Of a stretch of 64,000 nucleotides of DNA, positions 4,623-39,800 are shown piece after piece (the stretch's first letter is position 1; each line of letters begins with the position of its first letter). A program made the position numbers and the translations under genes. Source of the DNA: Cenarchaeum sp. GTDB taxonomy: Archaea; Thermoproteota; Nitrososphaeria; Nitrososphaerales; Nitrosopumilaceae. The DNA lies in the NCBI GenBank assembly GCA_965242695.1, contig CBDESU010000002.1, positions 64,001 through 128,000 on the forward strand. Direction: 5' to 3'. The notes under the pieces were generated by a model that saw nothing but the letters and a program-made list of their open reading frames with translations, was not told where the DNA came from and made no database searches.

Positions 4623-7600
4623 CAGGCGCCGCCCCCTCCGCCGCCGCTGCCGCCGCGCACGTCGTCTAGGTACCACACCGGCACCGGCGGCTCGGCGTCC
4701 CTGAGCGAGTTGGGCACCTCTTCGAGCCCCCTCGATGCATCCTCGCCGGTCGGCCGCATCAGGTACTCTGCATTCTCGGGCTGCCGCGCCAGGCGGTGCC
4801 ACGGCCGGCTGTACCTGAGTGGAAGCCGCCCTGTCGCCGCCTCGTGCCAGACCCCCGCAAGCCGGTCAATGTCCTCCGACGTGCCCACTTCCTGGTCGGG
4901 GTCGACGCTCCTGGCCCTTTCCAGTATAGCGGCGCGGGCCCTCTCGAGCATGCCGGCGACATGCGACTCGGGAGGGGACGCGCGGAACTCGGCGGCTCCG
5001 GAGGCGCCGGCGAGCCTTGTGCCCTCGTGGCGCAGCATGGCCACGAGCACGGCTAGGAGCGCCCTGTCGCGCGAGCGCGACGAGAACGGCGTGACCGTGT
5101 TCGGCTCGACGTTCTTGTGCAGGGTGGAGTGGTAATGCACAAAGTTCTCGTAGTGCGACAGGTCGCGCGGCTTGAGGTAGTTTAGGTTGGCGATGACGAG
5201 GCCCGGCGATGCGCGCCCGATCCGCCCCGTCGCCTGTATGTACTCGGAGTGGTTCTTTGGCTGGCCGTTGACGATCATGACGCCGAGCCGCGGTATGTCG
5301 ACGCCGACGGAGAGCATGTTCGTGCAGAGCAGGACGTCGACGGGCGTCGGCGCGATGCCGGCGCTCCCAGGCTCCCGCGGCCGGCCGGCGCCCTCTACGG
5401 CCGCCTCCAGGCCGCGCAGTATGTCGGGTATGTCGCTCGAGTCGATGCGGCTCGTCAGCTCCTCCTTCATGAGCAGTGCGTCCTTGTACGCCCGCCCGCC
5501 GTCCTTTTTCCCGCCGCCTCCGCCGGCGGCGGCGGCGGCATCCTCCTCAAAGTTGGCGTATATCCTCTGGATGAGGCGCGGAACCGTGTCGTCGTACATC
5601 TTGTTGGCCCCGCCGAGGTCGCGCAGGGTGTTGAAGTAGGCCACGAGGGTGTGGTACGGGTCGAGGTCGCCCGGCGCTAGCTCGCCCCCCTCCTCGAGCG
5701 CGCGCACCTTGCGCAGGACGGCGGCAGACAGCCTGCCGAGCACCGTCGGGCCGCTTCGCGACGTGACGCACATTCCGACGTACGCCCTGCCTGGCTTGAT
5801 CGAGGGGTCGGCCCTTGTCGCAAAGAACGACTCGCCGTAGTCTAGGCCCTGCGGGGGAAACACCCTGCTGTCGCGGCGGTCAAAGACCGCGGCTATCTGC
5901 CCCGACGCCTTCTTGGCCGTGGCGGTCGAGGCTATGATCTTTGGGCGCCCGGCGCTGCCGCCGGAGCACAGCGCGTCCACGGCCGTCTCGTAGATTCCCG
6001 TCAGCGTGCCGAGCGGCCCCGATATCAGGTGCAGCTCGTCCTGTATGACGAGCTCGGGCGGGTCGAGTCGGGCCTGGCCGTGGTCGCCTAGCAGGAATGT
6101 CTCGGCGTTGCCGTGCGCGCCGCAGTCCTTGTCGAGCGCGTCGACAGTAAAGCCGTGCTTTTGGCAGTACTTGTCGACGCGGCCGAGGACGGCGCCGGCC
6201 TCCCACTTCCACGTGAGCTGCGCAAACTTGTCGACCGTCCCTATCACCAGGGACGGGCACCTGCTGTAGATGTCGTCGTCGACGACGAGGACGGGCAGGT
6301 TGGACTCGTAGCCGGCGCCCGGCTTGTCGGAGAATTCGCAGTACTTGTTCGGGCAGTACACGCGGCACTGCTCGGGCCTGCCCGACACGCGGTAGTCGCG
6401 TGCTGTAATCTCCTTGCCGCACCAGGGGCACTCGATGATCTGCACGGGGTTCTCGCCGCGCCTCGGCCGGCCGGCCCTCGCCTCCTCGATCGCCTCCCGG
6501 GCGCTCTGGAGGCGGTTGGGCGTCGCGCCAGACCCGACCCACAGCCCGACAAGGAACGGCTCGTCGCCCCACTTTGCCGGGGTGCGGCGCCGCACGGACT
6601 CGCATGCGCACATGAGGGCCGCGGCCCTGTGGAACTGTTGCAGCGTGAGCAGGCGGAGGGTGTACCGCATGACGACGGCCGTGCCGTAGCGGAGGTGGTT
6701 GGCATCGTGGGAGCGCAGGCGCCGGTGCGCCAGCGTAAAGGCGATCAGGCCGAGGTACGCCTCCGTCTTGCCCCCGCCGGTGGGAAACCACAGCAGGTCG
6801 GCGGTGCGGCGGCCCTCCGAGGACGGATCCGTGATCGACTCTATGTTGAGGAGGAAGAAGGCGAGCTGGAACATGTGCCACCTGCACTCGCAGGGGCCCG
6901 GCTCGTAGGCAGGCGCCTGGAGGCCGGCTCGCTTGTCTCGTATCCACCGGGCGTGCGACATCTGCAGGTACATGGCCCTGTTGGCGAACGAAAAGGCGTC
7001 GGCCGCCGCCTCATCGGTCGAGACGATCTCGATGCCGCGCCGGATGCGCCGCAGTGCGCGCCGGCACTCGGCTGCCTGTCGGTTGGCGGCCGCCCTGTGG
7101 CGGGCCGGCATCCGTGCCGCGCGCGGCTCCAGATCGCCGGCTATCCAGGCCTCGTACTCGTCGGCGAGCGGCGAGAGGAGGGCGGCATAGTCAGCCGCCT
7201 TTGCCTCGTACAGCGTCCTCATGTCCAGGTATGCGGCATCGGAGGGGCGGGGTCCGACGTGGGGCACGTCGTACCGCGGCACAAAGGTCGTCTCTAGGGA
7301 CGAGACGGCGCCGTGCTCGGCCGCCTCTTTTTCGTCCCACACTACGGCGCAGCAGTGGCCGGCCGCCACATGGACTTTGTCACGGAACATCATCTCAAAG
7401 AGGGCGTGGTCGGGGTCGACCTGGTCGCCGTCCGGCGGCGGCGCGGCGGCGGCGCCGACGAATATACGCGCATTCCCGCCTGCGGCGCCGTCCGGCGGCA
7501 GCAGCGTTATTCGCGGTTGGAAGGCGCACCGCGAGACGCCCGGCGGCGCAACCGCGAGGTGGATGTTCGTGTTTACCACGAACACGCGCAGGGCCGGGCC

Positions 7601-8230
7601 CCCGCCCGGGCCTCCGGCCTTGACAGAGTACCGAACCTCGAACTCTGGGTGGTCCTGCAGGGGCACGGATGCGGGGCCGGGCCGGCCCACGGGAATGTCG
7701 ATGGTCTCCGAGTGCGGGACGCGCCGGAACCGCCTGGCCTTCGAGTCCTCGGAGGGCTCTTCGACGTACGTACCGTACTCGATGCGCGCCCGCACGCGGC
7801 TTGTGCCCGGCGCGAGGGTGCAGCTAAGTCCGAACGACGACGGGTTGGCGCCCGTGGAGGGAACGCCCCCGGCGCCGGCGGCGGAGTGGCCTGCGCCCGC
7901 ATCGGCGTCTCCGCCGTCGGCGGCGGCGGCCCCGCCGCCTGCCTGCACGCCGGATCGCCCCTCGTTGTCCTCCTCGTCTGCCTGCATGTGGCGCGGGAAC
8001 AGTATGCCCGACATGTACCCGCGCAGGGGGCTCTCGCTCGACGGCAGCTTCTCTTCGGGGCCGCCCCGCGGCCCGACTATGTCGGCGCGCAGCTCGTCGA
8101 TGAGCATCTCGCGCACCTCGAGTGCTCCTTGCCTGCGGAGGCGGGGGGCAGGCTCGCCGTGGGCGGGGGGCAGACGGGACGAATCGCGGAGCTGATTGGC
8201 GCCGGGGGCGGCATCGCCGGCAGAGCTCAT
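4622..8230 (-). CDS. drmA: SF2 helicase, DISARM DrmA-like
   Basis: W..FQLAFFL, LLWFPTGGGKTEAYLG, YTLRLLTLQQF, GTVDKFA, IQDELHLISGPLGT, NMLSVGVDIPRL and EYIQATGRIGR motifs. GGAGG lies upstream of the ATG at 8230. Confidence 0.88.
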   Translation of the reverse strand: MSSAGDAAPGANQLRDSSRLPPAHGEPAPRLRRQGALEVREMLIDELRADIVGPRGGPEEKLPSSESPLRGYMSGILFPRHMQADEEDNEGRSGVQAGGGAAAADGGDADAGAGHSAAGAGGVPSTGANPSSFGLSCTLAPGTSRVRARIEYGTYVEEPSEDSKARRFRRVPHSETIDIPVGRPGPASVPLQDHPEFEVRYSVKAGGPGGGPALRVFVVNTNIHLAVAPPGVSRCAFQPRITLLPPDGAAGGNARIFVGAAAAPPPDGDQVDPDHALFEMMFRDKVHVAAGHCCAVVWDEKEAAEHGAVSSLETTFVPRYDVPHVGPRPSDAAYLDMRTLYEAKAADYAALLSPLADEYEAWIAGDLEPRAARMPARHRAAANRQAAECRRALRRIRRGIEIVSTDEAAADAFSFANRAMYLQMSHARWIRDKRAGLQAPAYEPGPCECRWHMFQLAFFLLNIESITDPSSEGRRTADLLWFPTGGGKTEAYLGLIAFTLAHRRLRSHDANHLRYGTAVVMRYTLRLLTLQQFHRAAALMCACESVRRRTPAKWGDEPFLVGLWVGSGATPNRLQSAREAIEEARAGRPRRGENPVQIIECPWCGKEITARDYRVSGRPEQCRVYCPNKYCEFSDKPGAGYESNLPVLVVDDDIYSRCPSLVIGTVDKFAQLTWKWEAGAVLGRVDKYCQKHGFTVDALDKDCGAHGNAETFLLGDHGQARLDPPELVIQDELHLISGPLGTLTGIYETAVDALCSGGSAGRPKIIASTATAKKASGQIAAVFDRRDSRVFPPQGLDYGESFFATRADPSIKPGRAYVGMCVTSRSGPTVLGRLSAAVLRKVRALEEGGELAPGDLDPYHTLVAYFNTLRDLGGANKMYDDTVPRLIQRIYANFEEDAAAAAGGGGGKKDGGRAYKDALLMKEELTSRIDSSDIPDILRGLEAAVEGAGRPREPGSAGIAPTPVDVLLCTNMLSVGVDIPRLGVMIVNGQPKNHSEYIQATGRIGRASPGLVIANLNYLKPRDLSHYENFVHYHSTLHKNVEPNTVTPFSSRSRDRALLAVLVAMLRHEGTRLAGASGAAEFRASPPESHVAGMLERARAAILERARSVDPDQEVGTSEDIDRLAGVWHEAATGRLPLRYSRPWHRLARQPENAEYLMRPTGEDASRGLEEVPNSLRDAEPPVPVWYLDDVRGGSGGGGGGA

Positions 8231-32588: not shown

Positions 32589-33185
32589 GTGAAGACAGAG
32601 TGCAGGACGCGCCTCAAGGACAGGATCGCCAGGGTGCTACTCAACTCGCCGAGGGGCGACATCACAAAGTACCGCGTGGCCAAGGAGGCCGGTGCCGGAT
32701 ACCCGTGGACGCACAAGCTGCTGCGAAGGCTAGAGGACGCCGGACTTGTCGAGGGCACAAGGGTCGTCGACATGAAGGGGCTCGTCTCGTGGTGGCGGCG
32801 GTGGAGGCTGCCCTTTGAGCACCGCGACTACATGGTGAAAAAGCCGCTGAGCCTCCTGGCCGCCTCTGGCATGCAGCACGCGGCGACCACGTACCTGGCC
32901 GAGAGGATGGTCCAGGAATACCTGTTCACGTCGCGCGTGGACGTGTACGTGCGGCAAGAGGACACTGCAAGGTGGCACGAGCTCATAGTCGAGGACGGCC
33001 TGGTGGGCGGGGGCAACTTTCGGCTGCTCTTTGGCGACGACCACGTCTTTTACAGGTCGCTCAGCGTAGAGGGCGTAAGCGTCGTGTCCCTCCCCCAGAT
33101 TGTCGCAGACCTGTACGACGTGGGAGGGGCATGCGTCGAGGCGGCGGACATGCTGGTCGAGAAGGTGAGGGACAGTGCTGTATGA
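32589..33185 (+). CDS. AbiEi-like antitoxin (winged HTH plus AbiEi_2-like domain)
   Basis: N-terminal HTH (TKYRVAKEAG), VDVYV and VVSLPQIVADLY...EAAD. It overlaps the downstream nucleotidyltransferase, and TTTATA lies at about 32561. Confidence 0.7.
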   Translation: MKTECRTRLKDRIARVLLNSPRGDITKYRVAKEAGAGYPWTHKLLRRLEDAGLVEGTRVVDMKGLVSWWRRWRLPFEHRDYMVKKPLSLLAASGMQHAATTYLAERMVQEYLFTSRVDVYVRQEDTARWHELIVEDGLVGGGNFRLLFGDDHVFYRSLSVEGVSVVSLPQIVADLYDVGGACVEAADMLVEKVRDSAV

Positions 33186-34815
33186 AGAGTATGAGACAAA
33201 AATCTCGCAAAGTAACCTGTCAAGGGTTGTCGCAGAGCTCCCTGCACCCGTATGCTTGCTTGGTGGCTGGGCCGTCTACTATACGGTCAACTCGAGGTAC
33301 CACGCGGACACTGGAACGTCGTACCACGGATCAAAGGACATAGACCTAGGATTCCACATCGAGCCCGACGCAACGGTCGAGTCGCTGCGCAAATCGGCGC
33401 TGGCCAAAGCGATCGATGCACTCAAGGGCATGGAGTTTCGCAGCGTGGGAATACGGCTGTTTAAAGAATACCACCGGGAGACCCATGTCGTTCTTGCGGA
33501 GGCAAAGGCGAAAAAAACTCCCACTTACAACATATTCCATTTATACGTTGATCTTCTGGTCGATAATGCTCCGGGTTGCATCAAAAAGGCGATCGGTTTG
33601 ACACCCATCGACGAAAAGCTGCTTACCAATGTGTTCGATGGGAGAATGTTCAGGGCGATCGACGAGCTGCACGCCCGCGTAATTCTGCCGGACCCTGCGC
33701 TCCTCCTGGCCATGAAGGCCACATCGTTGCCATCTAGGACCAAGGACCACAAGAAACACAAGGATATCATGGATATATATGCCCTGATTTGGTACTCGGG
33801 CGTCCCGATAAAGACCCTCCGCCAGAGCGTGGCAGGGCTCATCTCCGGCGACGGCATGGCTAGGATGCTCTCGTCGATCAGCGGTCCTGACTACAAGCAG
33901 GCCGCGGATGCCCTAGGAGTAGACAGGGAGGGGCTTGAAAACGTTATAAAGAACTTTGTGCGCGGCGGTGCTACCGTGAAGCAAAATAAGGAAAGGTGGA
34001 CAATCCCGCGTAACATGTCTTACGATAGACTTATAATGACGGTCAAGGCACTCCATAGGGCCAGGGCAGATCAAAAGGCTGTAGGACTTGAAAAAATATC
34101 TAAGACGATCGGAGTGAGTGCGGATAGCGCGAGGCGAGGTTTGGCATTCCTAAGAAGCACCGGCATTGTAGAGTTGACAGGACAAAAACAGTACTCACTA
34201 ACTGCCGTCGGCGTATCATATGCCGAAGCACATTCAAACGATGATGATGGTCAAATCTCTGAATGTACTCGGGACATCATCAAGCGATCACATCTTAAGA
34301 TGCTAGAAGATGCCATCGAAATCAACAAAAACATGACCCGAGAAGACCTTTACAAAAGAATCAAGACGTTCGGAAGGCTTCCTAATGGGAAGGATATAGG
34401 CAATATGCATGGCCCCGACGCCACAGGGGCAACGACCATCCTGCGCCTCTTTGAGGATGCAGGCCTGCTCAGGGAGGATACGCGCGCACCCGCCGCCAAG
34501 GGCGCCGAGGGCGGTCACCACGCGGCGGTCGGCACGTCCAAGCCGCGCGGCGGCAAGCGCCCTGCCAGAGCGGGTCGGGGCGTGCCCGGCGGTGGTGGTG
34601 GTGGGCAAGCGCATGTTGACAGGTCGGCTACAGCCGGCGGTGGCGAGATCGACGACCTGGCCGTTCTCACTGTAAGGGGCGTAGGCCTAGTGCAGGTCAA
34701 CGATCTGGAAACGCTGAGGATGGCTGAGGCGGGCCTAGACATGGTGCGGAAGCGGCTGCAGGGTAAGCCCCGAGACGAGGCAGGGCGCTCGGATGCGGCG
34801 CGTTCGCAGTCCTGA
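33175..34815 (+). CDS. AbiEii/MenT-like nucleotidyltransferase with long winged-helix-like C-terminal extension
   Basis: LLGGWAVY, GSKDIDL, LLAMKA and KDIMDIY. The second half is HTH-like (LEKISKTIGVSADSARRGLAFLRSTGIV...YSLT). Confidence 0.75.
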   Translation: MLYEEYETKISQSNLSRVVAELPAPVCLLGGWAVYYTVNSRYHADTGTSYHGSKDIDLGFHIEPDATVESLRKSALAKAIDALKGMEFRSVGIRLFKEYHRETHVVLAEAKAKKTPTYNIFHLYVDLLVDNAPGCIKKAIGLTPIDEKLLTNVFDGRMFRAIDELHARVILPDPALLLAMKATSLPSRTKDHKKHKDIMDIYALIWYSGVPIKTLRQSVAGLISGDGMARMLSSISGPDYKQAADALGVDREGLENVIKNFVRGGATVKQNKERWTIPRNMSYDRLIMTVKALHRARADQKAVGLEKISKTIGVSADSARRGLAFLRSTGIVELTGQKQYSLTAVGVSYAEAHSNDDDGQISECTRDIIKRSHLKMLEDAIEINKNMTREDLYKRIKTFGRLPNGKDIGNMHGPDATGATTILRLFEDAGLLREDTRAPAAKGAEGGHHAAVGTSKPRGGKRPARAGRGVPGGGGGGQAHVDRSATAGGGEIDDLAVLTVRGVGLVQVNDLETLRMAEAGLDMVRKRLQGKPRDEAGRSDAARSQS

Positions 34816-34992: not shown

Positions 34993-35081
34993 AGCGGGGT
35001 GGGGAAGTCAGTCTCCAAGGGCTAGGTCATCCCGGCGGGCTCATAACCCGCAAATCAGTAGTTCAAATCTACTCCCCGCTA
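34993..35081 (+). tRNA. Initiator tRNA-Met (CAT) with 14-nt D-loop intron (35012-35025)
   Basis: Acceptor stem AGCGGGG/CCCCGCT (A1:U72), D stem GGGA/TCCC, anticodon stem GCGGG/CCCGC with loop CTCATAA, T arm AGTAG-TTCAAAT-CTACT, and a BHB motif around the insert. Confidence 0.92.
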
Positions 35082-36463
35082 CTACCTTCAAGACGCAGCC
35101 AGGCGGAGCGGCCGTCGAACCGGGCCGCCCCCCTGGCGCCGCGCCTCTGCAGCGGCCTTGCCAGGTGCCTCTGCGACGACGGAGGGGGAAGGTACACGCC
35201 GGCGCGCAGCGCGCGCGGCACCTCGACCCTTGCCTTGCCGGCGCCGGCCGGGGCCGGCGCGCCGCACCTCGGGCAAGAGTACCCCTGGTCCCGCCCGCGC
35301 GACTTCATCGACCTGCCGCACGGGAGGCATCGCGGGTTGGCATCGCGCCAGGCGCGTGCGACCGAGGCGACCTCGATCACCTCGGCGTTGAGCACGCGCG
35401 GCAGGCTGCGCGAGGCCGGCCGCACGCCGCCGCCGACGCGCACCATGTCGCCGGCGGCAAGCAGGGAGGCCGTGCCGGCCAGTCCCGACCTCTTGTACGC
35501 GGCGCACCTCACCGCAACCGCGGCCGTCGTATGCACGTCAAAGTACGCGTGGCCGCCGGGGCCGCGCGATGCGGGCCCCGCCACGGTCCCCTCGACGGTT
35601 CCCGACTCGTACGGCCGGAGCGGCGCGCCGCCCATGTCTGCCAAGAGGTGCTCGCCCGTCCCCTGGTTGGTCCTGTACACGGCATGGCCGGCGTCCGCCT
35701 CGCCGCCCGTGCCGACCATGCGGCGCGCCCCGAGCAGAACGGGCAGGTCTTCGCCGCGTATCCCGTACAGGACTGGGTCGGGCCCGCGCGGGGCTATGAG
35801 CGGACGGCGGGCGCGCTCGTCGTAGCTGTTGAACGTGCGGGGGCGCGTCGCGTCCTGCATGCGCCGGACGCTGCCCGCATCGATGCGCCGCGGCCTGCCA
35901 AACATTGGCGGGCGGCGGTAGGAGAGGAGCTCTAGCGTGCTGTCGCCGCCAAACTCGTACCCCGCGGCCGCCACGGCCCCGACGATGCCCTGCCCGTTGC
36001 CGAGCGACTCTACGTCGACTCCGTGCCGCCCCGGAAACCGGCGCGCATCGCCGCGTCCGATCAGGGTGCGGAGCGCCTCGCGCGCAAACCGCGCCACGGG
36101 GCGCGGGACGGCCCCGGCGCCGGAGATGAACGCCGCGGCCGGGTTGGCCCCGCCCCGCACGTCCGAGTGCCGCTCGAGCATCCGCACGGTAGCCTCCCTG
36201 GCCGCCGCCGGATCGCCGGTGTATACGGACATGCCGACGGCGCCGTTGCCCCGCGTCTTCCACGGCACGTTTGGGTTGAGCCGCACGAGGCGCGGGTAGT
36301 CGGCGAACCGTGCCCCCGTCCGGCGCAGCTCGACGGCCAGCCTAAAGCCGATGTACGTCGTGCACATGCCGCTCACCGAGTCGGTGTCGTCCATGCCTAT
36401 CCGCAGCAGCGCCTCGCCACGGCGGGGGCCGGGCGGGCCGGCGTCGCCACCCTGTTCCGTCAT
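35069..36463 (-). CDS. tiaS: tRNA(Ile2) agmatinylcytidine synthase
   Basis: IGMDDTDS..GMCTTY, PRLVRLNPNVPWKTRGNGA, DPVLYGIRG, TNQGT and a C-terminal Zn ribbon. Confidence 0.95.
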   Translation of the reverse strand: MTEQGGDAGPPGPRRGEALLRIGMDDTDSVSGMCTTYIGFRLAVELRRTGARFADYPRLVRLNPNVPWKTRGNGAVGMSVYTGDPAAAREATVRMLERHSDVRGGANPAAAFISGAGAVPRPVARFAREALRTLIGRGDARRFPGRHGVDVESLGNGQGIVGAVAAAGYEFGGDSTLELLSYRRPPMFGRPRRIDAGSVRRMQDATRPRTFNSYDERARRPLIAPRGPDPVLYGIRGEDLPVLLGARRMVGTGGEADAGHAVYRTNQGTGEHLLADMGGAPLRPYESGTVEGTVAGPASRGPGGHAYFDVHTTAAVAVRCAAYKRSGLAGTASLLAAGDMVRVGGGVRPASRSLPRVLNAEVIEVASVARAWRDANPRCLPCGRSMKSRGRDQGYSCPRCGAPAPAGAGKARVEVPRALRAGVYLPPPSSQRHLARPLQRRGARGAARFDGRSAWLRLEGSSGE

Positions 36464-36762
36464 CCCCGCACCGCGCATGGGACGACAAGCAGGGAGGGTT
36501 TTTTGCCTGTTGCGCGCAGTACGTGCGCTGGTTGCAAAGGTGGGCATGTTTGCTCGCATTCTACAAGCACTCCCATAGTCGTCCATATGACCCCTCTGGG
36601 TGCCATCAATGGAGTCCGCCGCGATCAGCAACACCCCTGCACGCTAGTAGTTGAACGGGGCGGGAGTCGTGGCAGGTGGGCGGTGGTCGGGAGCTGCCAT
36701 GCATTCCTGTGCAATAACCCGCTCTAGTGTGTTGGCGCGCAGAGTAGGACATGGCACGCCCT

Positions 36763-37270
36763 CTAGGCTCCCGTATCGGCGATCTGGAGGGCTTGGAGTG
36801 CGCTGGACAGGAGATCGTTCATGCCCCTGCCTTCTTTTCCGACATCTATGCGGATGAATTCCCTCCCCGTTAGGGATCCGCCCGGCATGACGCCGTCATC
36901 CGTTATAACGGGCACGATTTTGAACCCCTTATTGGGCTTGAGGTGCCTTAGCATCTGGGCGCAACCGATTTCTTCACGTACGTCGTACGAATCCCTTCCG
37001 CCCGGGGTCAGGAGAATTATGATCGCGTGTGAGTCTTCCATGTTTTTGATGATTTTCTCCCACAGATTTTCCCCAGGTTTTGCGTGACGTTCGGCCACGT
37101 ACGGCAAAAATCCGAACAGCCTGAGCGCGGTGCTGACATCAGCAACAAGATCCATGTCGTCGTTGCTGTGGCTGATAAAGATTTTCTTGCCGTTTGGCAG
37201 GGCGGGCTCTACATTTAAGTTACCCTGATCAAACCATTCTTGCTCTTCGGACCACTCAGGTGGGTTTTTT
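36763..37270 (-). CDS. TIR domain (TIR_2-like), probably the C-terminal part of a frameshifted Ig-like-TIR gene
   Basis: KIFISHSNDD, PGENLWEKI, IILLTP and DVREEIG with the putative catalytic Glu. It joins the upstream ORF if one A is removed from the A8 run at 37265-37272. An alternative TTG start exists at 37299. Confidence 0.85.
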
Positions 37271-37549
37271 TTGTATTGTATATAGCACGCCTGCCTCAAA
37301 CAGAGAGCCGCGGCCAGCAGTCCAGAGTCCCACTATGACACTCGTCTCCCCTATGCACTTGGATTCCCCTGGTTCGATTCGTATACTCCGCAACAGTGTT
37401 TCATTCCAATTCTCGGTAAGAAAACGGAGTTTAACGCTGTGGAGTACCGCAGAATCCTTGCCGTCGTTTGTGACAAACACCCTCATCCGTGCAGTGTCGC
37501 CGTAATGATATTTCCTGTCGGCTCTGTCGGGATCGACCCGTACGTTCAT
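37256..37549 (-). CDS. Ig-like (CARDB-type) beta-sandwich, N-terminal half of the TIR gene
   Basis: YHYGDTARMRVFVTNDG...IEPGESK pattern. The ATG overlaps the E1 stop (ATGA). Confidence 0.6.
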   Translation of the reverse strand: MNVRVDPDRADRKYHYGDTARMRVFVTNDGKDSAVLHSVKLRFLTENWNETLLRSIRIEPGESKCIGETSVIVGLWTAGRGSLFEAGVLYTIQKKPT

Positions 37550-38922
37550 CCCTGCCTCATCTCCAGCGGCGTAGACATAGGCATGCACCCGCCCTTGCCC
37601 ATTCGCAGCGCGCAGACACACCCCTGCTTGGCCAAGGGTGAGAGTGTGTGCGCCGTCAGGGTCGACATGTCGGCCATCACCATGCAAGCGCTAGGCTCAG
37701 TTATCCTAAAAAGCGTGTCCTTGAACAGGAACACTGCAAGGCTGGCCGCCATCGTAGTAAGCGATACGACGGACGGTGCATCATCGTCGTCAAGGCCCGC
37801 AACGTATCCCCTCTTTGCCCTAGCGCTTCTGTCTTCAGAGCCGAGCGATTCAGCCAATATTCGATCGGCGCTGATCACGCCGGCGCAGTACAGGCACGGC
37901 AAGGACGGGCTTACCAGATTGACCCTCACAGATCCCCCTGAAATCTTGCCGTTTCTCGAGTCGAGTCCAACTCCTACGTCTATGACAGGTATGAACATCT
38001 GGTGGGCCAGTTCGTTGAGCACGCTTCGTGGGCGGTGCTTGTCTGTACAGCTAAAGACCAAGTCGCACTCTTTGAGGAGTGTCAGTCCTTCCTGCGAGAC
38101 GACATCGACGTCTGCCTCCTCCACGGCAGATTCGGGCGATATTCGCCTTATGTGTGCCCCGACTATTTCAACTTTTGGGCTGCGCTTCGTCGTTGCATCC
38201 GTACCGTACATGCGCGTTCGGTTGCTCGGGGAGAATCGGTCGTGATCTACGAGTGTAAAGTGCCGCACCCCCTCCCGGGCAAGCTGCTCCGCCACCGCCG
38301 ATCCCGTGCCTCCCACGCCCACTATGCCAATCTTGATGCCTGACAAGACCCTCTGCCCGTCAAGTCCAAACGCGCGGATCTGCCGGTCGTACAGCCCTGC
38401 GTCGACCGGAACAGGCTTGGCGGATTGGCGGCCCAGGGGCTTGAACTGGACATGCCTATCGACGATCCTAAGCTGGCCGACGGGCTCGACGCGCTCGCCT
38501 ATCGTCCACGCCCTTCCGATCATGGTGTCGTGGCCGAGTAGTAGGCTCCCCATTGGCCTATCTCCCAAACACCGCCTTAGCGTCCCATATGATTCGACTT
38601 CGCCGGCCAAGTCCAACTGTGAGTAATCTAGTCCATTGCCGTGGAATGGGTGCGTATGCGACAGGATCAGAGTGACGCCATCGCACTCCGCCATCCTGAT
38701 GGCCTTGTTGAGGTAGAGCGGCGACATTTGTAAGTTGTGGGCGGTACGCTCATCGTAATCTTCGCGAGTGGGGATTACCATGTCGCGAACCGTAAAGTGG
38801 GTGCCCTCCTTGTTCTTGAAGAACCCAGCAGTAAGGATTATCGCCGACTCTTTGCTCATATCCTCCATAAGGCGCGATTTTAGCTCGTCCATCTGAGAGG
38901 ATGTCATCCGTATGGTGTTCAT
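37546..38922 (-). CDS. JAB/JAMM peptidase fused to ThiF/E1-like adenylyltransferase
   Basis: JAMM motif ES...HTHP...YSQLD. E1 motifs are LYDRQI, GVGGTGS, VDHD...SNRTR, PKV, CTD...R, CLYC and C-terminal CVC. Confidence 0.9.
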   Translation of the reverse strand: MNTIRMTSSQMDELKSRLMEDMSKESAIILTAGFFKNKEGTHFTVRDMVIPTREDYDERTAHNLQMSPLYLNKAIRMAECDGVTLILSHTHPFHGNGLDYSQLDLAGEVESYGTLRRCLGDRPMGSLLLGHDTMIGRAWTIGERVEPVGQLRIVDRHVQFKPLGRQSAKPVPVDAGLYDRQIRAFGLDGQRVLSGIKIGIVGVGGTGSAVAEQLAREGVRHFTLVDHDRFSPSNRTRMYGTDATTKRSPKVEIVGAHIRRISPESAVEEADVDVVSQEGLTLLKECDLVFSCTDKHRPRSVLNELAHQMFIPVIDVGVGLDSRNGKISGGSVRVNLVSPSLPCLYCAGVISADRILAESLGSEDRSARAKRGYVAGLDDDDAPSVVSLTTMAASLAVFLFKDTLFRITEPSACMVMADMSTLTAHTLSPLAKQGCVCALRMGKGGCMPMSTPLEMRQG

Positions 38923-38924
38923 GA

Positions 38925-39767
38925 CTATCGGTCCCTACTCAGCCTGTCGTTAACCACGTCAAGATACGTCAGAAGGTTGTCGTGTGCCGGATCCCACCCA
39001 CCGATGTGCCAGCTGAACGACTGCCACTCCCTTCCGTTCCGCGTTTCGGTTATCGCGCCGTCAGGCGGCCCGCCTTTGCGCGATATGGGAGGATCGAGCC
39101 AGAACATGTCGAGCGCAGCGTTGGGGTACGTGTCGTGCGCCATGATGAGCAGATCGGACGAGGTCCGGTCCCAGATGCCCTCGGGAATGGGATAGTCCTT
39201 GATCACGACGTATATCGCGTTGTCGACAGCCACCTCTACTTCAAAGCCCCTCGACTCCAGCTGGGCTATGTGATCCTGCAGCAGCGGAGGCACCCGTATC
39301 GCGGCCTGCGAGCCGAACGTGGCCGCGTTGACCGTACGAAAGCGCATCCCCAACACCAGCCTTATGATGTCGGCATCGGCCTTGGGCTCGTCATCGGCGC
39401 CGGCGGCCCTGCCGGGTTCGTCGACGAGTAGTATCAGCATATGGTGGATGGGAGCTCCCGCCATATCCTTGAGTTCCCTAGCCGTCATCTCCGGCTTCGA
39501 GGTCCTGTATTCTTTCCTGTTGATGGTTATTACGATGCCGCCGCCGGCCTCCGTGGCCGATCCGACCGGCTCGCCAGAGCCTCCCGGCGGCACTGTTCCC
39601 GCACCTCCGCCGATCGTCCCAGACGCCGTGGCCGGCCCAGCCCCGGGCCCCCGCCCCGCGCCATTGGCACCAAGCGACTCGCTACTCGTTAGCGTCCCAC
39701 TGTCAATCGCCTTGTCAACGGCCCGCCCCGCGCCATTGGCACCAAGCGACTCGCTACCCTGACTCAT
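38925..39767 (-). CDS. Multiubiquitin-type Ubl fused to Prok-E2_E-like E2 domain
   Basis: Beta-grasp ITINRKEY...MTARELKDMAG...IRLVLGMRFRT ending in ATFG. The E2-like part is YVVIKDYPIPEG, YPNAALDMFW, WQSFSWH and WDPAHDNLLTYL. Confidence 0.85.
   Translation of the reverse strand: MSQGSESLGANGAGRAVDKAIDSGTLTSSESLGANGAGRGPGAGPATASGTIGGGAGTVPPGGSGEPVGSATEAGGGIVITINRKEYRTSKPEMTARELKDMAGAPIHHMLILLVDEPGRAAGADDEPKADADIIRLVLGMRFRTVNAATFGSQAAIRVPPLLQDHIAQLESRGFEVEVAVDNAIYVVIKDYPIPEGIWDRTSSDLLIMAHDTYPNAALDMFWLDPPISRKGGPPDGAITETRNGREWQSFSWHIGGWDPAHDNLLTYLDVVNDRLSRDR
39651..39757. repeat. Direct repeat (2 x about 35 bp, SESLGANGAGR) in the N-terminus of the Ubl-E2 gene
   Basis: CCGCCCCGCGCCATTGGCACCAAGCGACTCGCTAC at about 39651 and 39723. 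Confidence 0.9.
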
Positions 39768-39791
39768 ACTCGCTAGGCGGCCCCGCGTTTC

Positions 39792-39800
39792 CATATAAAC
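39792..39800 (-). promoter_or_regulatory. TATA box for the Ubl operon (probably leaderless)
   Basis: GTTTATATG about 26 nt upstream of ATG 39767. Confidence 0.65.

Follow-up and report, generated by a model that had tools for sequence, protein, structure and literature searches.

Type I Bub operons (formerly called 6E.1 or DUF6527 operons) consist of BubAB, BubCD and BubE, the last being a serine protease of the DUF6527 family (PF20137) (Ye, Gong, Chambers, Corbett; bioRxiv 10.1101/2024.11.21.623953). In the Citrobacter system, Edman sequencing placed the cut that the JAB domain of BubCD makes in BubAB directly behind G229. Citrobacter BubB has no catalytic Cys; it works through S333 together with H335 and D299, the E1 uses Y370 in its crossover loop, and conjugation depends on S333 and H335 (bioRxiv 10.1101/2024.11.21.623953). 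The same preprint states that no phage-protective Bub operon was found and that the biological role is open. Here we describe a related three-gene locus in a 64,000-nucleotide (nt) stretch of a Cenarchaeum sp. genome (contig CBDESU010000002.1, positions 64,001 to 128,000), referred to below as the window. The genes lie on the minus strand and encode a ubiquitin-like protein (Ubl) fused to an E2, a JAB-E1 fusion protein, and a protein with a beta-sandwich N-domain and a TIR domain (N-TIR). The locus is probably a horizontally acquired archaeal operon in which a conjugation core of the Type I Bub type is combined with N-TIR in the place of BubE. The Ubl-E2/JAB-E1 chemistry is known from bacteria (2024); the undescribed part was found to be the TIR-type effector gene, broken in this strain, that takes the place of BubE.

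The catalogue in Table S1 of Ye et al. (PMC11601596) consists of the DUF6527-containing operons of Millman et al. (2022). Since it was drawn from DUF6527 operons, the statement that all Bub operons possess bubE is true by construction, and BubE-less relatives fall outside it. A term search of Table S1 gave 0 occurrences of "archae", "Methano", "Thermoplasma" and "TIR"; one archaeal name is present, Candidatus Nitrosopumilus adriaticus, listed as Type II. Within the literature searched, DUF6527, BubAB and BubCD appear only in two Corbett-laboratory preprints; "TIR" is absent from the main text of both, and the sole mention of "archaea" there is a structural comparison with the Pyrococcus JAMM1 peptidase. 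In a literature search with subscription-journal versions outside its scope, we found no paper describing a JAB/E1/Ubl operon with TIR. The row 6e operons of Iyer, Burroughs and Aravind (2006, PMC1779556) contain polyUbl, an RWD-like E2, E1, JAB and a Cys/His zinc-finger protein. They share the Multi_ubiq, Prok-E2_E, JAB and E1 families with the window, and a Cys-less E2-like domain was noted there and predicted to be inactive. Their conserved extra gene, unlike that of the window, is the zinc protein, and "TIR domain" occurs 0 times in PMC1779556.

The closest described system is the Type I Bub of Citrobacter sp. RHBSTW-00271 (PDB 9ea4, 9ea8, 9eae, 9eav). Both have a Ubl-E2 fusion with a conserved junction Gly, a Cys-free E2 with Ser/His/Asp, a JAB-E1 with E, HxH, D and a crossover-loop Tyr, and the same gene order. 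The window genome differs in having no BubE, a beta-sandwich plus TIR gene instead, and an archaeal host. Citrobacter has three beta-grasp domains whereas the window has one behind a low-complexity N-terminus. The window E1 carries a four-Cys set of which Citrobacter lacks the first pair, the window JAB-E1 falls outside the clade of all 51 BubE-linked JAB-E1s, and no CapW or CapH/CapP regulator was found among the window neighbours scanned. Type II cyclic oligonucleotide-based antiphage signaling systems (CBASS) and the pyrimidine cyclase system for antiphage resistance (Pycsar), with a Cap2 E1-E2, a Cap3 JAB and in some cases TIR effectors, also combine E1/E2/JAB chemistry with an immune effector. 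In contrast to Type II CBASS, the window has no cyclase among the neighbours scanned, its E2 is fused to the Ubl and not to the E1, its E2 has Ser and not Cys, and a separate Ubl is present. Bil (BilA-D), whose role is antiviral as summarised in bioRxiv 10.1101/2024.11.21.623953, likewise encodes Ubl, E2, JAB and E1 together. Bil differs in its Cys thioesters, its multi-domain E1 with a separate Cys domain and its unfused JAB, none of which is found in the window.

The bubAB-like gene (38925..39794, minus strand) is an open reading frame (ORF) of 289 codons plus stop with the ATG at 39794. It was assigned by ORF and translation, by a Prok-E2_E match and by 15 close homologues with 48-90% amino acid (aa) sequence identity in a large protein collection. 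The protein begins with METRGRLASMSQGSES... and ends with ...GREWQSFSWHIGGWDPAHDNLLTYLDVVNDRLSRDR. M10 (MSQGSES...) is an alternative start and the close homologues start there. A script count gave 0 Cys in 289 residues. Residues 1-85 (39540..39794, minus strand) are a Gly/Ala/Ser/Pro-rich low-complexity region, and N-terminal length varies among the homologues. Residues 86-161 (39312..39539, minus strand) form a beta-grasp ubiquitin-like domain with the end FRTVNAATFG, assigned by an AlphaFold2 (AF2) model and Foldseek; its Pfam match to Multi_ubiq is weak (E 0.072). Residues 162-289 (38928..39311, minus strand; 128 residues) are a Cys-free BubB-like E2, assigned by Pfam, phmmer and Foldseek. 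Prok-E2_E (PF14462) matches residues 174-286 with E 1.9e-22 in Pfam, and the best sequence match among all solved structures is Citrobacter BubB (9eae_C, E 5.9e-7, phmmer). The AF2 model of residues 86-289, built from an 87-row alignment, has a mean predicted local distance difference test (pLDDT) score of 92.9. Foldseek places it on Citrobacter BubB 9eae_C (E 3.6e-7, TM-score TMt 0.83, root-mean-square deviation 1.9 over 125 columns) and on residues 155-229 of Citrobacter BubA (9ea8_B, E 5.1e-3, TMt 0.72), followed by several "multi-ubiquitin" proteins. The Ubl/E2 junction lies in coil (model residues 72-84); pLDDT reaches its minimum for the model (68) in the 10-residue block around this junction. 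PADLOC and NCBIfam gave no family match to the protein. Close relatives of the protein were not found in the metagenome contig scan, and the genome contig scan gave one distant locus (L008).

A first-pass annotation made from the sequence had described a Ubl ending in FRTVNAATFG that runs directly into a Cys-free E2 with WQSFSWH; sequence, Pfam, AF2 model and Cys count all agree with this. The range it gave, 38925..39540, holds both folded domains and misses the 85-residue low-complexity N-terminus, which extends the ORF to 39794. Two identical 36-nt direct repeats (39650-39685 and 39722-39757) are found inside this low-complexity region. Spaced by 72 nt, they encode a duplicated SESLGANGAGR in the disordered Ubl N-terminus. 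Tandem Repeats Finder missed the 72-nt-spaced repeat and a separate repeat search found it.

The junction codons G161/S162 (39309..39314, minus strand) were read directly and mark the predicted JAB cleavage site, ...GMRFRTVNAATFG161|S162QAAIRVPPLLQDHIAQLESRGF.... G161 corresponds by position to Citrobacter G229, the mapped cut. Among 1.84 billion representative proteins, 471 relatives of the Ubl-E2 fusion were found at E<=0.001. The window protein was aligned with 163 homologues (the best 150 of the 471 relatives plus the close homologues). All 93 sequences that reach the junction column have Gly in it, which is no chance pattern; the remaining 71 either are truncated or consist of an E2 on its own. 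WQSFSWH covers residues 257-263, and S261-W262-H263 (39006..39014, minus strand) contains the predicted catalytic Ser and its His. D229 (39108-39110, minus strand) is the predicted partner Asp. D229, S261 and H263 align with Citrobacter D299, S333 and H335 in an alignment that was hand-counted against the published numbering. The trio reads DSH in 149 of the 159 sequences with residues at those columns. The idea of a cut at the Gly and a Ser-based E2 had been made to depend on the Gly and the Ser/His being conserved among homologues, and both are. In 119 of the 164 aligned sequences Arg stands in the place of S259, the first Ser of SFSWH, which leaves S261 and not S259 as the candidate for catalysis. 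The earlier proposal of a conjugating Ser in SFSWH can thus be kept for S261 and dropped for S259.

Four homologues carry Cys at the S261 position and have lost Asp and/or His: P0018 (trio GCN), P0024 (GCE), P0155 (QCG) and P0069 (PC-, by alignment). As the Ser-lacking variants carry Cys, the S261 position is read, indirectly, as the active site. The local motif is FCWN in P0018, FCWE in P0024 and FCWG in P0155; two orphan copies in the Cenarchaeum genome itself (L006 and L007, described below) read FCWY. These Cys-bearing variants may be a cysteine-using sub-branch of the Bub-type E2.

The bubCD-like gene (37546..38922, minus strand) starts after a 2-nt spacer from the bubAB stop and encodes a 458-aa protein with a JAB peptidase (about residues 1-165) and an E1 adenylation domain (about residues 170-458), assigned by ThiF and BubCD matches. 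The E1 domain matches ThiF with E 4.9e-32 (Pfam), and the best solved match of the protein is Citrobacter BubCD (9ea4_A, E 1.7e-34 over residues 12-405). Pfam Prok-JAB gave no match to the JAB domain of the window even at E<=10, and the JAB assignment was made because of the alignment with BubCD. E25, H89/H91, D104 and Y373 align with Citrobacter E28, H91/H93, D104 and Y370; the codon of the crossover-loop Tyr373 is found at 37804..37806 (minus strand). E25, H89, H91, S101, D104 and Y373 are invariant in 37 of 37 JAB-E1 homologues, as are C343, C346, C435 and C437. C343/C346 form a CxxC (CLYC) just ahead of the crossover loop and C435/C437 a CxC near the C-terminus; in the alignment, Citrobacter BubCD lacks cysteines where the window has the first pair. 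The four Cys are probably a structural zinc site of the MoeB/ThiF type. The PADLOC "E1-E2" (Cap2) models match JAB-E1 with E 2.7e-19 over E1 residues ~190-350 only. Named homologues with 47-53% identity come from Nitrosopumilales, Nitrosotalea and Nitrosarchaeum metagenome-assembled genomes.

By analogy with Citrobacter, the JAB domain of JAB-E1 would cut the polyprotein right after Gly161 to give a Ubl ending in ...ATFG and the 128-residue E2. The E1 domain would adenylate Gly161. The Ubl would be carried as an oxyester on Tyr373 in the E1 crossover loop and then on Ser261 of the E2, with Ser261 activated by His263 and Asp229, and would finally be passed to a target lysine with no cysteine involved. 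The JAB cut after the Gly and the Ser oxyester E2, both proposed in the first-pass annotation, match the Citrobacter Type I Bub mechanism and are strongly supported by homology; all named residues align. The E1 step most likely proceeds through Tyr373, which that annotation did not include. As a new idea the mechanism had been anticipated, this chemistry being already published (Ye et al. 2024).

The third gene (36763..37549, minus strand) was assigned by sequence, a TIR_2 match and homologues. It is present in the window as two ORFs, 37256..37549 and 36763..37299, and its ATG overlaps the bubCD-like stop (ATGA). The first ORF encodes a 97-residue beta-rich domain, with the TIR domain after the frame break. 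The TIR domain matches TIR_2 (E 4.7e-14) and CAP12-PCTIR_TIR (E 1.4e-6) in Pfam and TIR models of PADLOC with E down to 4.8e-8. The large protein collection contains intact homologues of 254-282 aa, one of them from a "Thaumarchaeota archaeon", and their alignments span both window ORFs; the window N-TIR is therefore one gene split by a frameshift. A Glu at column 265 (DVREE motif) is near-invariant in the window TIR and 21 homologues; it may correspond to the catalytic Glu of TIR NADases. The AF2 model of the N-domain is an all-beta sandwich (pLDDT 86.4) for which Foldseek gave no match at E<=0.001. In exhaustive structural alignment the scores fall off without a clear leader, from Spo0M (Z 8.5) and transglutaminase beta-barrels (8.4) to TXNIP/ARRDC3 (alpha-arrestin) N-lobes (7.4-7.7) and CARDB (7.3). 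On this modelling the N-domain amounts to a common immunoglobulin (Ig)/arrestin-like beta-sandwich and nothing more specific.

The frame break is found at an A8 homopolymer (37265..37272, minus strand, from the sequence). Contigs of four public runs (X1, X4, X5 and X6), and not reads, were aligned to 36700-39800; no RNA run was listed with this stretch. The X4 and X5 contigs have one letter fewer at 37265, which places N-domain and TIR in one frame, as in the homologues. The X1 contig (word depth 406.8) and the X6 contig (depth 2.6, weak) agree with the window at the A8 run. X4 and X5 come from different studies, X4 and X1 from the same study, and X1 has all sampled words. Over the covered stretch there are 3 substitutions against the window in X4 and 7 in X5. 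The contigs show that open and broken N-TIR forms both occur in nature, and they give no frequencies. The X4 contig also lacks 72 nt between the 36-nt repeats of the bubAB-like gene, so the length of the low-complexity region differs between strains. A split N-TIR was also seen at locus L034 of a second N-TIR clade, where it is present in two overlapping ORF fragments (5212-5987, plus strand) behind an intact JAB-E1.

The GC content over 36.5-40.0 kb, the three-gene islet, is 0.50-0.66 versus 0.68-0.74 in the flanks. The islet lies between a TiaS-like gene (280 bits, under the equivalog cut-off) and a Dph1/Dph2-domain gene (TIGR00322, 202.6 bits versus a cut-off of 35). TiaS and Dph1/Dph2 are archaeal or eukaryotic families, which marks the host as an archaeon. 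The genome is 3.89 Mb in size and 96% complete, and it contains four Prok-E2_E copies and no BubE match (PF20137/DUF6527) at E<=1. A local DUF6527 hidden Markov model (HMM) likewise matched neither the window nor any of the 12 other loci around it in the JAB-E1 tree. Prok-E2_E is found in 2 of 201 genomes of an order sample and in 3 of 401 of a phylum sample, all of one family. One of these (G447, locus GC 37%) encodes a Ubl ending in ...MRFRIVNPATFG-stop (Multi_ubiq E 4.9e-8), an E2 with RFSWH and a JAB-E1, with a 283-aa N-domain+TIR ORF (TIR_2 E 7.6e-11) directly after JAB-E1 on the same strand. Another (G099) encodes a Ubl (...KRG|SQ), an E2 and a JAB-E1, followed by two small hydrophobic ORFs taken as membrane proteins; G099 has no BubE. 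An N-TIR profile matched 25 of the 401 phylum-sample genomes, and full-length N-domain+TIR was found only in the Cenarchaeum genome itself (G000) and G447. The other 23 have the TIR part alone or a weak partial match, the nearest exception being G551 (profile positions 11-195). Two of the three Prok-E2_E-bearing phylum-sample genomes are thus the two with full-length N-TIR.

A metagenome contig scan with the JAB-E1 alignment gave 532 relatives, of which the best 80 were examined. The local DUF6527 HMM matched 51 of these 80 loci. Sixty-four loci were informative, their contigs continuing for 600 nt or more past the E1 gene. Of these 64, 44 carry DUF6527, 6 an N-TIR gene, 1 N-TIR fragments (L034), 4 a TCAD9/APH-like gene and 9 nothing recognisable. 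In the six N-TIR loci (L013, L014, L015, L021, L029 and L043) N-TIR is the next gene on the same strand. A maximum-likelihood tree was built from 76 JAB-E1 proteins: those of the 80 metagenome loci, minus 9 whose E1 ORF was shorter than 430 aa, plus the window, L005, G447, G099 and L008. The root is a midpoint for drawing only, and G099 sits on a very long branch. A 54-row clade (100/100) contains all 51 BubE-linked rows plus 3 contig-edge rows. The window groups with L005, a paralogue in its own genome (100/100), and these two form a 5-row clade with G447, L013 and L014 (100/97) in which four of the five rows, all except L005, are N-TIR-linked. This clade is nested in a 12-row BubE-less clade (100/100), where L021 is found among TCAD9-linked rows. 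A further N-TIR group of L029, L034 and L043 (100/98) lies outside the 12-row clade. Among the BubE-less loci near the window clade, L017, L018, L019 and L027 have a gene of 480-550 aa for a TCAD9/APH kinase-like protein directly after JAB-E1.

We lean towards N-TIR being the output or a regulated partner of the conjugation core, that is, a TIR NADase-type effector. The lineage would then be an immune or abortive-infection system in which the JAB is also the sole deconjugase. With N-TIR frameshifted in the sequenced strain, the output arm is probably silent there; the conjugation core itself is intact. More tentatively, in the BubE-less lineage, mainly of archaea related to ammonia oxidisers, Ser/Tyr-based tagging could control the TIR effector through the arrestin/Ig-like N-domain, with the poly-A tract as an on/off switch. 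If true, this would be the first concrete immune output of Bub pathways, and the poly-A switch would let populations carry the system at low cost. The recurrent TIR protein in the place of BubE points to an immune, NAD-depleting or signalling output. The N-TIR variant offers an assayable read-out and, in the N-domain, a candidate partner or substrate for Bub-type tagging. The locus also adds archaea to the known range of the Ser/Tyr-based Bub pathway.

The layouts of Ubl and E2 bear on what the JAB does in this lineage. In the tree neighbourhood of the window the Ubl is mostly a separate gene. It ends exactly in ...ATFG-stop in L013, L014, L019, L020 and G447, has one extra residue in L018 and L021, and has a longer tail in L023 and L005. 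Here a fused Ubl-E2 is found only in the window and its 15 close homologues. Several layouts are interchangeable: besides the fusion, there are separate genes with a tailed Ubl and separate genes whose Ubl has a mature Gly end. Judged by these ends, fused precursors and tailed Ubls would need a JAB cut but Gly-ending Ubls would not. The 1:1 stoichiometry of Ubl and E2 suggested in the first-pass annotation may hold for the fusion but is no conserved requirement, as the nearest relatives encode Ubl and E2 as separate genes. Given the Gly-ending Ubls, the JAB of the BubE-less lineage would have a second job, most plausibly deconjugation.

Several points weigh against a Bub-type operon with N-TIR as its third component. 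As the Ubl of the nearest relatives already ends at Gly, JAB processing is dispensable for Ubl maturation there. For the cut after Gly161, for the oxyesters on Tyr and Ser and for the target, the reading draws on analogy with the Citrobacter system, and the CLYC cysteines of the E1 might have a catalytic role. The link to TIR is not universal: L005, L016, L020 and L022 in the same clade have another or no recognisable third gene, and the four TCAD9/APH-like loci have that gene instead. The BubAB homologue P0014 and the BubCD homologue P0186 come from contigs of the same length (42,924 bp), a length that no listed N-TIR homologue shares. Contigs of equal length do occur for BubCD and N-TIR homologues (16,405 bp for P0189 and P0171; 3,227 bp for P0238 and P0175), which is a coincidence of length only. 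The window N-TIR is itself frameshifted, and the operon therefore persists without it.

Some of these points agree with a different reading, in which the core works as described but N-TIR is merely a neighbouring, independent defence gene and the system is a minimal two-gene Bub variant without an effector. N-TIR is broken next to an intact bubAB and bubCD, members of one JAB-E1 clade differ in their third gene, and stand-alone TIR genes are common, most of the 25 profile-matching genomes of the phylum sample having the TIR part alone. We nevertheless regard this as rather doubtful. The two-domain N-TIR is found directly downstream on the same strand in 8 loci (the window, G447 and the six metagenome loci named above). 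These spread over three separately supported tree groups, with JAB-E1 identity to the window down to 33%. In the window the start codon of N-TIR shares bases with the bubCD stop, and no phylum-sample genome without Prok-E2_E has the full-length N-TIR architecture.

The frameshift could also mean that the operon is a decaying remnant in the sequenced strain, with conjugation genes that have no useful role. It is found in the window, X1 and X6 contigs, and two further Prok-E2_E copies in the same genome are orphaned or degenerate, one of them next to a transposase-like ORF. Decay of this kind is unlikely, as neither bubAB nor bubCD is shortened or has lost a catalytic residue. One base in the A8 run makes the break, and the near-identical X4 and X5 contigs have the frame open there; recent or reversible switching would explain this as well as decay would.

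It is highly improbable that the E2-like domain only binds Ubl, as an inactive module of the RWD-like kind, and that the fusion is no precursor of a conjugation enzyme. The complete lack of Cys in the fusion and the inactivity reading of Iyer et al. (PMC1779556) speak for a dead domain; the dependence of Citrobacter BubB conjugation on S333/H335 speaks against it, as do the conservation of the Asp/Ser/His trio and the Cys in Ser-less variants, including the two orphans of the same genome. A sulfur-carrier or small archaeal modifier protein (SAMP) pathway of the ThiS/MoaD/UbaA type in place of Bub-type conjugation is hardly credible, for although JAB-E1 matches the MoeB/ThiF models of NCBIfam with E 6e-21 to 1e-20 and keeps the four-Cys set, its scores are far under the cut-offs (MoeB 74.8 versus 266, ThiF 74 versus 275 and the SAMP E1 UbaA 52.2 versus 450 bits), its E1 domain is joined to a JAB and has an E2 as partner, its best solved match is BubCD, and the genes occur rarely and within a low-GC islet.

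The four Prok-E2_E copies of the Cenarchaeum genome include a second full system, L005 (G000:C2:550000-563000; 5230-7672, minus strand). Its Ubl ends in ...AFGG plus a 26-residue tail and is followed by a separate E2 (RFSWH) whose GTG start overlaps the Ubl stop. The L005 JAB-E1 is 58% identical to that of the window; downstream are two related ORFs of no known family and no TIR gene. L006 (5401-6285, plus strand) and L007 (6571-7086, plus strand) on contig C2 are orphan or degenerate Prok-E2_E copies with no E1 nearby. They have Cys for the catalytic Ser (FCWY) and have lost the His, and one copy lies beside the transposase-like ORF.

Many BubE loci of the metagenome scan have further genes after BubE, an SDH-type ClpP-like serine protease (PF01972) and/or a deaminase of ~530 aa (dCMP_cyt_deam_1/MafB19-like). 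These were seen in L046, L048-L050, L053, L059, L062, L069, L073, L074, L080, L081 and L083, in L086, L087, L090 and L091, and also in L041, L079 and L084. In 16 loci with the SDH protease and 3 with the deaminase, the BubE gene as detected by the local DUF6527 HMM overlaps the end of the E1 gene. The Bub papers examined make no mention of these accessory genes.

A second low-GC islet (32589-34815, plus strand, GC 0.49-0.62) adjoins a tRNA-Thr(GGT) at 34993-35082. It encodes a 198-aa helix-turn-helix (HTH)-like ORF and a 546-aa ORF, with weak AbiEii nucleotidyltransferase/HTH matches (E ~1e-3, below cut-offs). By sequence this pair is possibly a toxin-antitoxin or abortive-infection pair.

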